Shown here: in pieces, positions 39,466 through 58,464 of the stretch
Layout of the letters: each line of letters begins with the position of its first letter
Numbering within the stretch: the first letter of the stretch is position 1
Source: Eledone cirrhosa
Lineage: Eukaryota
Direction of reading: 5' to 3'
DNA length: 64,000 nucleotides
NCBI GenBank assembly: GCA_964016885.1
Contig: OZ024759.1
Location: 30,318,001-30,382,000 of the forward strand
Made by a program: the position numbers and the translations under genes
The notes under the pieces: generated by a model
The model's database searches: none
Told to the model about the DNA's origin: nothing
Seen by the model: only the letters and a program-made list of their open reading frames with translations

Positions 39466-39735
39466 ATAAGATCAAAAGATGGTTAAAGGAGTTCCATATA
39501 TTTTATTATGCGCATTTCAAAAACAAACATCATCATGCAATAATATTTGTGTTTTCATCAGATAAAATAGGAGAACATGATATGAAGGCTAAAAAACACT
39601 TGTGGATAGTGCAGTTTTAAATCAACATATCTTTTGATCTTATATTATGCATACTCCAGTCCCACAAATTGTAGAGTGCTTCTTATCCGATATCTGCATT
39701 GCTTTATTGTACTACAATAAAACTCACCTCCTACA
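39466..39735. mobile_element. TA-embedded fold-back element, family B, ~17 bp arms
   Basis: tataagatcaaaagat / atcttttgatcttata plus tail ...caataaaactcacctcc; homologous to the 45486 and 57953 copies. Confidence 0.85.
39499..39569 (-). ncRNA. Type I hammerhead ribozyme (family B)
   Basis: tattttat CTGATGA aaac..stem II..tttt GAA ATGCGCAT A ataaaata. Confidence 0.8.
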
Positions 39736-40127
39736 TATATGTGTATATATATATATATGAAAATCATAAACAAGATGACGACCGACCATCTAGTATCTTC
39801 TACCTTAGTCGGTCGCACTCAATAACTAACTCCGTACTCGCACCACCAACTACACAAACGAAGATGGAATGACCAATTCTATCCAGTGGTGAACCAACAA
39901 CATATATATATATATATATATATATATATATATATATATATATATATATATATATATATATATATAGGAGGACGTTATAGTTCACTTGAAGCATTGTGTA
40001 ATGAGGTATAAACGTTTGTATATGTATAATAAAGCTAAAACAATGTAGGTATTGACATAGAATAAAGAATGCAAATGCAAAAGATATTGTTGACAATTAG
40101 TCTTTTACCTTAGATTTATTTAGATGT

Positions 40128-40162
40128 CCTTAATTTTCGAGATAATATCTCTTCTTCGGAGG
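40128..40162 (-). ncRNA. Candidate minimal hammerhead (core CCGAAGA)
   Basis: cct CCGAAGA a gagat att atctc GAA AATT A agg. Confidence 0.35.
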
Positions 40163-40303
40163 GAAGTAAAGCGTCCAACAGATCGGTTATATATATATAT
40201 AAATCTATATACATAATCTATGTGTGTGGATATATATATATGTGTCTGTGTACATATAAAGTTGGCGGACTAAAGAAATTAACTATTCATTATATTAACT
40301 ATT

Positions 40304-40422
40304 GCTAAGTAGTGAGTCTTGTTACTCTGGAATTTCACCTGCTCCCTCTCATGACCATTAGGCAATAAAGTTTATGTGAGTGCGCAGGTGAAACTCTATA
40401 GTAACAAGACTCACTACTTAGC
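40304..40422. repeat. Fold-back with ~39 bp arms carrying a hammerhead-like 3' half
   Basis: gctaagtagtgagtcttgttact...tttcacctgc / gcaggtgaaac...agtaacaagactcactacttagc; arm consensus GAA ACTCTAGAGT A. Confidence 0.7.
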
Positions 40423-41124
40423 CATCATAAATGAATGTGTGTGTGTTTGCATAAAGTTTTCAAAAATATAGCAAACGACACAGTACAATGAAGAAATATA
40501 TTAGTTGAACAGTTGAAATAATAGGAAAACAGTGTTAACGTTTCGGACACTAGTCATTCACCAGAAGATAAAAAGACAAATAAAAAGACAAATAAAGGAT
40601 GAAATAGAAAGATAGAGTGAGAAGAGGAAGAAACGGAAAATAAATGAGAGAGAAACACACGAGAGTATTTATAGATGTGTGTATATATCTATCTATATAT
40701 ATATAAATAAAGTTAGTCCTTCATCAGTGATCTTCCAACCATCATTGGTATTTCATCGCTTTAAAGACCATATACCTCCGGCTGGTGCGAGCAACGGCTA
40801 AAAATAGTCGTTGGGACACGTAAATAAAGGGGACACGAGAGTGTAAACAAACAAAAATGGTGAAGCAACGAAAAGTGAGGAAAAAAGAATCAAGTCCCAA
40901 ATTTCCATGAATATAAGTTCGGTGAAATCGTGAACTAGAGAGTATATATATATATATTCACACTATTACTCAAAACAGTACTTGTTACTTGAGGTAGTAG
41001 AGTATGGCTATATTATAATGAGTCGGATCCCGACGGCTGAGCTCTTGCCGTTTCAACAAGAACTAACTTACCCTCTTTTACCTGTTCCAGCCATCCTGGG
41101 GCACCGCCTTTATATAAATATATA

Positions 41125-41325
41125 TATATATATGAAATTTAAAAGTTTATATACATATAAACTAGACAGAGCTATAGATACATATATATATATATATTAA
41201 TTAATTAAATAATTTAATTAATTCGTCATTGAGCCACACCGTGAATGGTTGCCAAAAACATATATATATGTATCTATAGCTCTGTCTAGTTTATATGTAT
41301 ATAAACTTTTAAATTTGATATACTC
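41125..41325. repeat. Inverted repeat, ~60 bp arms
   Basis: aaatttaaaagtttatatacatataaactagacagagctatagatacatatata and its reverse complement. Confidence 0.9.
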
Positions 41326-41504
41326 CCGTAAGGTTGAGTAATACTTTAGGCAGTATTCGGCTGCGCTTTCTAGCAACCAGCCTACTCGCCGACAGGCACC
41401 AATCACAAGCTTTCTGACTTGACCACTGGCCATGTGACAATTCTTAGCCATTTTGAATTCATTTCTGGTGGGGATCATTTAAGAAAAATCTTTGTCCAAT
41501 TGAG

Positions 41505-41593
41505 TTTATCTCCTGATGATTTCCAAACTCGTTGATTTATCCAAGATCGGATATATCCAAAAGGTGAATGAAGCCTCCGGTGGTAGAGATAGA
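41505..41593 (+). ncRNA. Type I hammerhead motif with long stem II (one core substitution)
   Basis: tttatctc CTGATGA t ttc..gatttatcc/ggatatatc..gaa t GAA GCCTCCGGTGGT A gagataga; 8 bp stem I. Confidence 0.6.
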
Positions 41594-42227
41594 TTTTGAT
41601 GATTTTGGTATGTTTATATACATATTTTCTTCTAACTTTGATTTTGTACCTAATTATGTATGGTTAACTATATATATAGTCAATTTCTACAGGCTATCAG
41701 AAATAATGGGTACATTTTCTGTGGCTGTGGGTCGCGGATGAAAAGCTATCATTTATTTATCTATTATTTCTTCATAAGTATATTTTAAACTTATAGCCTC
41801 GTTTAAATGATTTTTTTGTGTGGTTAATTATGCTGATTGGGAGAAGAAATACTGTATATATATTTTATCTAATGATTCTATGGACTTACTTATTTATATA
41901 TATATATAATATGGACGAGGTGTCAAAATTTCATTACATTTTGTGTGACTAGCGTTTTTTCGCAATTGATAAGCTCAATGTTAGATCTGTGTCGATCGGG
42001 CCCGACTTCGGAATCAAAAGTTCATCAGTCTTCTGTTGTCGTAATGACGAAATGATTCCCGTACACGCTAGTTAGTAGAACCCGAAATAAATAATGGAAA
42101 CTAGGCATCGAGTGTTCACTTGACATTGCAATCCATATTTATATATATATATATATATATATATATATATATATATATATATATATATATATATATATAT
42201 ATATATATATATATATATATATACATA

Positions 42228-42580
42228 CGGTACGGGGACTGTGTCAGGGGCACCTTGGCTTGTGCTGATATTTCATCTGACGAATGGGAGAAAAAGGCTG
42301 AGGAGCGTGTGAAATGGAGACGTTTGATCAAGTCCGGTAGTGAACACTTTGAAATTCGTCGAAGAGAACACCTAATACTGAAAAGAAGGTGAGCAAAAGA
42401 GACTGTTCTGAACTGCCTGCTGTTGAACATCATCTGGTTTGCCAGCTCTGTGGTCGAGCTGTCCAGCTCCTCGTTGGGTTGTTATCTCTCTGAGGAATTG
42501 GACATATCGGAGTATTGACGGAATAAAACACTTTAACATGTGTAGCTGTCTCTACTACACCAATTCGGACTGCCTGAAGA
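42228..42580 (+). mobile_element. RTE-clade LINE 3' end remnant
   Basis: [10 protein letters not shown]...WEKKAEERVKWRRLIKSG..FE.RR followed by VCQLCGR (C2H2-like). Confidence 0.75.
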
Positions 42581-56399: not shown

Positions 56400-56759
56400 A
56401 TTTGTTGGAATTCAACAAAACTTAAAAGCTTTATAACTGATATAAAGCACTCAACAGTGGGGGAGTAAATATTCATTATATTAATAAATGGAAACTATAT
56501 ATATATATATATATGGTAGTTCGCCACTAGGTAGAATTGGTCATTCTGGAATGTTATCCATGATGAAATGTCATTTTACCTTATAATATATATATGTGTG
56601 TGTGTGTGTGTATGTATATATATATAAATATATATATACACATACATACATATATATGCGTATACAGATACATACAAATCTTGATGATTTGACATATATA
56701 TTGAATATAGAGAGCCTTGATTTTTTGGGGGGATTCAGGAACGTAACAGAGAATTGTGT

Positions 56760-56894
56760 CCAATGACGTCATATTCCTCAACCAATCATATTGTATCTTT
56801 AAAAAAAATAGCCATTTTGGCCATATTCCTTGCATGAGAGGTGCATTGAAAATCTTCACGTCTTTCTTTGTCACGTTTGAAAACCGTGAAACAG
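56760..56894 (+). promoter_or_regulatory. Candidate Pol II promoter / first exon
   Basis: CCAAT at 56760 and 56782, CRE TGACGTCA at 56764, YY1-like GCCATTTT at 56811, donor cag|gtaatt at 56894. Confidence 0.35.
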
Positions 56895-57059
56895 GTAATT
56901 TATAACTACGCGTTTTGTAAAGCTTTTTTACAAGCTGTTGGACATCAAGTCTGAATACAGAGGAGTCGAACTCTCACTGTCATCGCCTCCACCTCTCTCG
57001 CCCTCTCCATCTCTCACTATTATGAGCAAATGGCGTCCTACGTGCTGGCCACCTCCACG

Positions 57060-57272
57060 GCCTCGGTGGACAGAATAGAGAAGGCGTTTGCCCGGAGGAT
57101 GGTAAGCGAGATGCGCTGAAAGAGCCATTCCACCTCGTCAGCTCAGCGCCTATGGTGGTAAGTAGGGAAGTAGCCCTGGAGCCAAGGATAGCAGAAGTCT
57201 CCACTGCTAGGGGCTCGATTGCTTTCCCATCGGAGAGCAACCGATACGTGGAGAGTTTAGTCTCCTCAGCTC
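57060..57272 (-). pseudogene. CRE-like non-LTR retrotransposon C-terminal remnant
   Basis: AEETKLSTYRLL...IEPLAVETSAILG...LLTTIG; same motif as 2848-3012. Confidence 0.65.
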
Positions 57273-57489
57273 CTAAATTATAGCACATATTTCAAAAAAA
57301 AATTACGTACTATAGCTTTTTTATTGAGAAGCACAAATATGAAACACAATTGATATGTTTCGATACCTTACATATATATATATATAGCACAGCTGATATT
57401 TAAAAGCAAGTATGCACACACACATATATATATATATATACACACACATATATACGTATGGGTTGTATCGAACATTAATAATTGTTTAT

Positions 57490-57672
57490 ACTTTTTGGCA
57501 CAAGGCCAGCAATTATCCAGTGGATTACTGGTACTTTATTTTATCGACCCCGTAAGGATAAAAGGCAAAGTTAACCTCGGCGGGATTTGAACGCAGAATG
57601 GCAAGGACCGTAACTCTATGCTGGAAAGCATGGCGTCCGACCCTCTACCGATACTGCCAATCCACCACCCTT
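57490..57672 (-). mobile_element. Full-length SINE S1
   Basis: Complete head, B box, core and tail. Confidence 0.9.
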
Positions 57673-57995
57673 CAGTCTGTATCGAACATTAATAATAATG
57701 TACGATTCGTTTGTAAACAAACGAACCCGTGTGTGTCAGTGTGTATATATATATATATATATATATATATATATATGTATATGTATATATATATATATAT
57801 ATATATATATATATATATATATATATATATATATATATATATATATATATATATATATATATATATATATATATATATATATATATATATATATATATAT
57901 ATATATATATATATATATATATATATATATATATATATATATATATATATATATATAAGAAGAAGAAATTAAAAGATATTTAAAAAAGTTCCATG

Positions 57996-58066
57996 TATTT
58001 TATTATGCGCATTTCAAAAACAAATATCATCCAGGGACGATATTTGCGTTCTCATCAGATAAAATA
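57996..58066 (-). ncRNA. Type I hammerhead ribozyme (family B, inverted arm)
   Basis: Reverse complement of 58145-58217 apart from a shorter T run. Confidence 0.85.
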
Positions 58067-58144
58067 GGGAGACATGATATGAAGCTTAAAAAAGACACTA
58101 CTTTGCTCACAAGTGTCTTTTTTAAGCTTCATATCATGTCTCCC

Positions 58145-58217
58145 TATTTTATCTGATGAGAACGCAAATATCGTCCCTGGATGATATTTGTTTTTTTGAA
58201 ATGCGCATAATAAAATA
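58145..58217 (+). ncRNA. Type I hammerhead ribozyme (family B)
   Basis: Stem I tattttat/ataaaata; CTGATGA; stem II caaatatcgtc/gatgatatttg; GAA; palindromic stem III ATGCGCAT; AUA cleavage triplet. Confidence 0.85.
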
Positions 58218-58464
58218 CATGGAACTTTTTGAACCATCTTTTAATTTCTTCTTATATATACTCCAGTCCAATAAACTGTTGAGTGCTACTTATCCGATAT
58301 TTGCATTGCTTTATTGTGCTACAATAAAACTCACCTCATATATATATATATATATATATATATATATATATATATATATATATATATATATATATATATA
58401 TCCTTCGTTTTTGAATTGGTTTTGCAAGATTTCTTATCTGAAAACGTGTGTTGAAACAGATATT

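Follow-up and report, generated by a model that had tools for sequence, protein, structure and literature searches.

Penelope-like elements (PLEs) insert as 5'-truncated copies, frequently adjoined at the 5' end by an inverted copy that is itself 5'-truncated; one end bears a tail of 30-40 bp, and insertions are biased towards microsatellites, a description given in PMC8557442 and also in a curation guide (PMC8969392). PMC8557442 counts among the open questions how the inverted repeats and the tail arise and where the preference for microsatellites comes from. The same paper describes the Hydra clade, which is defined by RWK and DKT motifs, a CxCX5C linker and an endonuclease without CCHH, and whose elements carry hammerheads and insert nearly always in (TA)n; it also reports that non-autonomous PLE derivatives exist. 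For a Poseidon PLE of the green anole (PAc), in vitro work described both target strands as cleaved and extended and the tail as the interval between two starts of the reverse transcriptase (RT); the start site of the enzyme had no homology to the cut DNA, the protein was predicted to be a dimer, and later integration steps were left unvalidated (PMC11167929). Truncated metazoan PLEs are described as carrying minimal hammerheads, some paired on opposite strands (PMC4209133), and one octopus as holding 31 recently active PLE families (PMC13282606). Among other systems, retrozymes derive from PLE pseudo-long terminal repeats (pLTRs) and are defined by tandems (PMC7229834; bioRxiv 10.64898/2026.07.22.740005), and twin priming of L1 yields insertions with an internal deletion (PMC2837659). 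Here we describe three copies of a short element, family B, in 64,000 nucleotides of Eledone cirrhosa DNA (GCA_964016885.1, contig OZ024759.1, positions 30,318,001 to 30,382,000 of the forward strand; hereafter the window, which is 34% GC and (TA)n-dense). The copies are likely the 5'-truncated 3' ends of a hammerhead-bearing, (TA)n-targeting PLE, probably of the Hydra clade, each likely derived from two RT starts on opposite target strands.

Layout and outer ends of the three copies

Family B presents a two-part layout between TA flanks, with fixed outer ends, a variable junction, continuation upstream in other copies and near-identical arms within a copy. In the window, blastn found three copies, c1 to c3, and one 22-nt stray match at 7051. 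Their parts are as follows:

39461-39734: c1, inverted plus forward segment (blastn)
39376..39460, unstranded: left flank of c1, compound (TA)n/(TG)n; right flank 39735-39758
39461..39631, minus strand: c1 inverted segment, 5'-truncated, about 171 nt, outer end at the internal TTATAT site
39629..39734, plus strand: c1 forward segment, 106 nt; a 20-nt arm at 39629-39648 (mirror of 39461-39480) and a tail of about 86 nt
45482-45801: c2, inverted plus forward segment (blastn)
45461..45481, unstranded: left flank of c2, (TA)n; right run 45802-45874
45482..45654, minus strand: c2 inverted segment, about 173 nt (blastn, core scan)
45655..45801, plus strand: c2 forward segment, 147 nt, beginning at the stem II base; a 56-nt arm at 45655-45710 and the tail
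57958-58337: c3, inverted plus forward segment (blastn)
57744..57957, unstranded: left flank of c3, (TA)n; right run 58338-58401
57958..58099, minus strand: c3 inverted segment, about 140-145 nt (blastn, core scan)
58100..58337, plus strand: c3 forward segment, about 238 nt; an arm of about 145 nt and a tail of about 85 nt, the first 7 nt or so being ambiguous at the junction

All three copies read (TA)n, an inverted segment, a forward segment ending in a tail of about 85 nt, and (TA)n again. A preliminary description of this DNA had reported one architecture with inverted arms of variable length; we recovered it in every copy, with arms of 20, 56 and about 140 bp (previously about 17, 53 and 147). 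Each copy is bounded on both sides by a 3' end of the ribozyme strand. The left end lies at a TTATAT-type site about 46 nt past the predicted cleavage site in all three copies, and the right end about 85 nt further. The common internal site described earlier is a fixed one, although c1 reads CTTATATTAT there and not literally 'cttatata', and the distance of about 40 nt is revised to the 46 nt just given. All three tails finish in AAACTCAC.TC, in agreement with the constant tail end noted before, and CTAC is added in c1 and c2. The tail is one-sided and an inverted 5'-truncated copy adjoins the 5' end in each copy, as published for PLEs. In other words, the layout is real but it is the 'inverted copy plus one-sided tail' already in print (PMC8557442), as is the origin of the tail from two starts, reported for the anole PLE (PMC11167929). 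Since this architecture is ordinary for PLEs, family B is not a new system.

Arms are identical at 20/20 positions in c1, 55/56 in c2 and 133/145 aligned columns in c3, and the exact 20-bp arm of c1 was reached in none of 200 dinucleotide shuffles (maximum 16). Both c3 arms carry the c3-type stem II of the hammerhead and resemble each other in those 133/145 columns, as compared with 80-84% to c1 and c2. Junction overlap is 2-3 nt in c1 and ambiguous in c2 and c3, and none of the three inner junctions holds a TA run. These data bear on the possibility that a single (TA)n run received two separate family B insertions, back to back. Such an event is favored by the abundance of the family (three copies in 64 kb and 4167 aligned contigs of run X1) and by its targeting of (TA)n, but there is no (TA)n at the junctions, one end is always tail-less, and arms are much more alike within than between copies, which makes a double insertion most improbable. 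At c1, a GT-interrupted direct repeat of 12-15 nt (39449-39463 / 39735-39749) is a candidate target duplication that could also be a microsatellite period.

Public reads and contigs from four of nine listed runs were aligned to c1 at 80% likeness (the listing showed no RNA run): 4167 contigs (X1), 5339 and 5932 restriction-site associated DNA (RAD) reads (X7 and X8), and 26 contigs from a second organism (X5). What follows concerns the 24 loose-end rows listed of 282, the 15 joints listed of 37 and the 40 substitutions listed of 121. At the two borders of c1, the listed loose ends (before 39458/39464 and behind 39734-39742) continue into (TA)n in every one of the four runs; those of X1 comprise 16 contigs on the left and 40+3 on the right. 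The element extends upstream beyond 39630 in 20 (X1), 340 (X7), 381 (X8) and 2 (X5) records, with sequence that is similar among X7, X8 and X5 and agrees poorly in X1. Accordingly, 5' truncation with fixed 3' ends, as in PLEs, was found in all four runs. The rows at 39474 are read-through into the tail. Thirteen of the 15 joints run from the inverted segment to a point in the tail (39664-39717), the other two being tail read-through; copies whose joints land inside the tail have no inverted repeat. Twelve of the 15 joints exit the inverted segment at 39620-39630, like c1 and c2. Gap-type joints, unlike the family B copies of the window, therefore do occur in other copies, both in these reads and in a second family, A. 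A read-depth gradient across the tail was set aside because of private changes of c1 there.

Ribozyme, tail hairpin and related families

The terminal sequence of family B is predicted to contain a type I hammerhead, followed on the ribozyme strand by a tail hairpin of the form RCTC-stem-loop-stem-TW-GAGY:

39499..39569, minus strand: c1 minimal type I hammerhead, predicted cleavage after 39507 (core scan, fold)
45520-45590, minus strand: c2 hammerhead, GAAA changed to TAAA (core scan)
57996-58066, minus strand: hammerhead of the c3 inverted arm, intact (core scan)
58145..58217, plus strand: c3 forward hammerhead, predicted cleavage after 58209 (core scan, fold)
39653..39677, plus strand: c1 tail hairpin (motif scan)
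45720..45744, plus strand: c2 tail hairpin (motif scan)
58260..58284, plus strand: c3 tail hairpin, 50 nt past the predicted cleavage site (motif scan)

The hammerhead consists of an 8-bp stem I, CUGAUGA, a long stem II, GAAA and a short palindromic stem III. The core CUGAUGA...GAAA is intact in c1 (minus strand) and in both c3 arms, so that its earlier portrayal as conserved applies to these copies but not to the inverted copy of c2, which lacks the G of GAAA. Stem II differs in sequence between c1/c2 and c3 and yet forms the same long hairpin in all four folds, with weak z-scores (-1.6 to -2.7), and we could thus corroborate that it varies while keeping its pairing. Eight of the listed substitutions fall in stem II; pairing was kept in 8/8 on the ribozyme strand and in 4/8 on the other, a pattern with a crude chance of 0.017 for rows that were filtered and are not independent. 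This strand-specific G-U pairing favors the ribozyme strand and suggests a constraint on stem II at the RNA level. Separately, a compact minimal hammerhead motif without TA context lies at 16019-16046, at the end of an 85-codon open piece without a Pfam hit.

Three further families, each with at least one two-part copy, were recognized in the window:

2319-2498, 12881-13081, 13143-13290, 13519-13698, 21340-21410, 44268-44381, 53192-53236, 61281-61500: the eight family A copies
50835-51039, 35190-35421, 50600-50777, 24727-24770: family C, minimal hammerhead, internal TATA-type end and tail of about 65 nt
60279-60598: family D, arms of about 128 bp and a one-sided tail of about 62 nt between TA runs

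Family A is unrelated to B and combines a hammerhead 3' half with an 80-nt tail in eight two-part (TA)n copies, a count that omits A9 and A10, which are matches but not two-part. Four of the eight have arms (about 38, 41, 64 and 70 nt), two have a forward segment that starts at the internal site, and two have a gap of about 45 nt. The inverted end lies a few bases from the internal site in 7/8 and 13 nt into the tail in the remaining one. Junctions lie inside element sequence, several of them within the predicted stem II region, and copy-specific letters beside the internal site are common to both arms in A2, A4 and A8. In family C a single copy, at 50835-51039, has the same two-part layout as B.

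The tail motif is common to families A, B and C and stands a few bases 3' of the internal site. It was defined after sight of the published Hydra-2_Amil end. The window holds seven occurrences with inner stems of 4 bp or more (three in B, four in A), against a null mean of 0.22 and a maximum of 2 in 100 shuffles, although these seven occurrences represent two families and not seven independent cases. The family C hairpin is a short form with inner stems of 2-3 bp. Overall, the motif scan gave 30 strand hits (null mean 7.9) at 22 loci, of which families A, B and C account for 10; since the remaining 12 do not clearly exceed the null, no additional families are claimed. In minimum free energy folds the tail hairpin is part of the optimal structure of c1 and c3, not of c2 or A8, and appears in C1 without inner pairs. 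Tail-hairpin-like motifs behind AT-rich tracts were also seen in TA-flanked islands at 41322, 53323, 56449 and 59996, with weak inner stems and, as a group, not above the null.

We compared this arrangement by eye with six Hydra consensus ends in the supplement of PMC8557442. Two contain the exact motif, 43 and 38 nt past cleavage and behind an AT-rich tract, and a third contains a near form, 47 nt past cleavage, whose inner stem is that of family B. The remaining three stop 36-47 nt past cleavage, matching the tail-less end, that is, the internal site of family B. With its (TA)n insertion and 3' hammerhead, family B also has a trait of the Hydra clade that is not unique to it. Since both the spacing past cleavage (50 nt in family B) and the tail hairpin resemble, by eye, those of some published Hydra ends, family B is probably a Hydra-type PLE end. 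We hold its PLE origin to be very probable and its place in the Hydra clade, which rests on these sequence likenesses, to be fairly probable.

Origin of the two-part copies

Fixed outer ends combined with arms of no fixed length fit two fixed starts joined at a variable point, and we infer that family B integrates from two primers. The process would begin with the GIY-YIG nuclease of the element nicking each strand of a (TA)n run. One end of the target would then prime cDNA at the far end of the tail, while its partner would do so at the AT-rich site immediately 5' of the hairpin. Both cDNAs would stop early, and end joining that uses little or no microhomology would unite them 5' to 5'. A tail-primed cDNA stopping inside the tail would leave a gap, one stopping at the internal site would leave no arm, and one running on would produce an arm of 20-140 bp. 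Because 20-140 bp are duplicated in the three window copies, the template must have been read twice or two RNAs used; displacement of a strand, or a sister RNA belonging to a dimeric particle, could account for this. Copies with a gap or with no overlap are compatible with two primers acting on a single RNA. The likeness of the c3 arms, together with the letters common to both arms in A2, A4 and A8, suggests a single source per insertion. The comparison with twin priming made in the preliminary description fits the data as regards two starts and their variable joining, but L1 leaves a deletion where the family B copies of the window duplicate sequence. Its proposal that the starts are primed by TA is a tentative one; the anole enzyme, by comparison, begins where there is no homology to the cleaved target.

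On the one hand, a DNA-transposon miniature inverted-repeat transposable element (MITE) or a foldback element, targeting TA and bounded by terminal inverted repeats (TIRs), would also display TA flanks and inverted repeats, and a TIR element that we take to be mariner-like is present at 24274-24653. On the other hand, the right end of family B is not the mirror of the left, arm length ranges from none to about 140 bp, and the conserved hammerhead shows strand-specific G-U pairing. With the tail outside the inverted repeat in 3/3 copies, an element with TIRs of fixed length is effectively refuted. Random outer ends and fixed-length TIRs were the two outcomes that the preliminary description had set against itself. 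Neither was seen, the border loose ends reading (TA)n in every run, 13 of the 15 listed joints entering the tail and family A ranging from arms of about 70 nt to a gap of about 45. Since outer ends run into (TA)n, the element continues upstream and junctions fall at many places, we reject random ends and the fixed-TIR MITE, and a MITE or foldback origin in general is scarcely credible.

Forward-only insertions might instead have been rearranged later, by fold-back replication or by recombination between the internal TATA tract and the flanking (TA)n. Unrelated DNA is inverted beside TA runs in this window (39260-39308/39345-39393; 41135-41181/41270-41316; 56278-56363), TATA tracts are palindromic, and near-identical arms would fit. 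However, about 150 nt of the c1 inverted segment are absent from the c1 forward part, so that the inverted part is not a local duplication. A plain flip between TA tracts further predicts TA at the junction and zero overlap, and a TA run is found at 0/3 junctions; in addition, eight family A copies share the layout with junctions within element sequence. We consider later rearrangement improbable.

A short non-autonomous element without an open reading frame (ORF), similar to a retrozyme or a short interspersed nuclear element (SINE) and borrowing PLE proteins, would involve the same chemistry with another source RNA. Every copy seen is shorter than 400 bp, the clustering of joint exits at 39620-39630 could mark a preferred 5' end, and both the pLTR ancestry of retrozymes and the existence of non-autonomous PLE derivatives (PMC8557442) provide precedents. 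Nevertheless, hundreds of reads run upstream of 39630, the clustering of exits may only reflect the end of the reference, and no head-to-tail tandem of family B occurs in the 64-kb window, though tandems define retrozymes. This alternative is unlikely, if less so than the others. We therefore retain the truncated PLE with two RT starts.

Several observations weigh against this interpretation. The Hydra comparison was made by eye on six sequences, all of them Hydra-clade ends, and exact matches of the four family motifs in the supplement of PMC8557442 numbered 0/4. No RT or GIY-YIG ORF was tied to family B. Pfam searches of 150 of the 176 stop-free window pieces gave no PLE-type RT or GIY-YIG; one weak RVT_1 match (E 0.017) at 62155-62442 lies in a degraded piece resembling a long interspersed nuclear element (LINE), far from the family B copies. 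Rfam returned eight weak matches for the c3 forward motif, none of them a hammerhead. The tail of about 85 nt exceeds the 30-40 bp published for PLEs (PMC8557442), and no target-site duplication is readable in (TA)n, c2 and c3 sitting in pure (TA)n. Family D has the layout of B, with no hammerhead core or tail motif found. Regarding the reads, about 1140 (X7) and 1538 (X8) stop at 39516 and probably stem from a single restriction-site locus; the highest counts (joint 39461/39649, ends at 39736) thus do not stand for many separate copies. Among the tail-skip joints, most are one contig each, at 80% likeness, with sides below 30 nt, and the letters between are not known.

More tentatively, the tail hairpin could be a cis-acting RT docking element that recurs across phyla in TA-targeting PLEs and fixes the internal start 5' of itself, with two-primer integration from one particle as the default, programmed route; we regard this as possible but doubtful. 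If it were true, the one-sided tail, the inverted pLTR and gap-type copies would fall under one mechanism. In the literature searched, mostly outside subscription journals, we found neither the tail hairpin nor PLE inversions treated as twin priming with a range from gap to duplication. Should this hairpin be what positions the RT, an enzyme that is sister to telomerase, it would offer a defined target for mutation in the in vitro assay already available. Tiny, abundant two-part copies are also a natural data set, as one read records both start sites and the junction. Such copies are easily misannotated as MITEs or microRNA (miRNA)-like hairpins, and Rfam gave sub-threshold miRNA matches on them.

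Neighboring features and comparison with known systems

A TA-flanked piece at 38891-39234, 230 bp left of c1, has a hammerhead-like core at 39148, and one of its frames reads SLKNIP, resembling by eye the N-termini of Hydra ORFs published in PMC8557442. It is possibly an internally deleted Hydra element, judging from its sequence; phmmer with the 36-aa peptide from 38959-39066 gave two uninformative hits. Inverted repeats of other DNA lie beside TA runs at 39260-39393 (49 bp, 98%), 41135-41316 (47 bp, 100%), 56278-56363 (about 40 bp) and 30290-30827 (164 bp, 90%), as do three older ones at 40301-40425, 53679-53847 and 58465-58731. The TA-flanked element at 24274-24653 has three copies of a terminal repeat of about 32 bp and offers a true fixed-TIR contrast. 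A 5S rRNA match of 64.1 bits at 29629-29740 adjoins a SINE-like repeat of which the window contains very many copies. In an Rfam search of the whole window (E<=1), the 150 matches listed of 463 include no hammerhead, and this 5S rRNA-like match is the only one above the gathering score. A metagenome pattern scan for family B returned 0 loci. A PAc-like ORF start in family B was also considered and is unsupported, since only c3 keeps an open frame across ribozyme and tail, which stops interrupt in c1 and c2.

Compared with L1 twin or dual priming, the route proposed for family B shares the priming of opposite cDNAs by two target ends and their 5'-to-5' joining with short or no microhomology (PMC2912911, PMC2837659). 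L1 differs in starting at poly(A) and leaving an internal deletion, whereas family B has a fixed internal start, no poly(A) and 20-140 bp duplicated in 3/3 copies. Non-LTR (long terminal repeat) retrozymes are likewise short, AT-rich, PLE-related and equipped with a type I hammerhead, but they are described as head-to-tail tandems of 150-450 bp hammerhead units (PMC7229834; bioRxiv 10.64898/2026.07.22.740005), while family B is head-to-head and 5'-truncated. The minimal PLE hammerheads of Cervera and de la Pena (2014, PMC4209133) have a large helix II and a palindromic helix III as in family B, and are mostly single dispersed motifs from truncated PLEs, with some opposite-strand pairs 100-700 bp apart, as in c3; stem I is 4-5 bp there and 8 bp in family B.

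With PAc (Frangieh et al. 2024, PMC11167929), family B shares the pLTR hammerhead and the AT-rich target, and the route proposed here resembles PAc in that both strands are cleaved and extended and two RT start sites bound the genomic tail. The PAc tail, in contrast, is 30-40 bp long and within the ORF start, and initiation is reported in an AC-rich stem-loop that lacks homology to the target; the tail of family B is about 85 nt, both of its ends are TA-like, and the frame is not kept open in c1 and c2. The Hydra clade (Craig et al. 2021, PMC8557442) differs in its stem II, mostly 3-7 bp in the listed motifs and about 15 bp in family B, and is defined by protein motifs, whereas family B is known from copies below 400 bp without a linked ORF. 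Nonetheless, the two have in common a hammerhead near the 3' end with a short palindromic stem III and insertion in (TA)n. One listed Hydra family carries a 5'-truncated inverted copy at its 5' end, and in three of the six ends compared by eye (two exact, one near) an AT-rich tract and the tail hairpin follow 38-47 nt past cleavage, an arrangement similar to that of family B.

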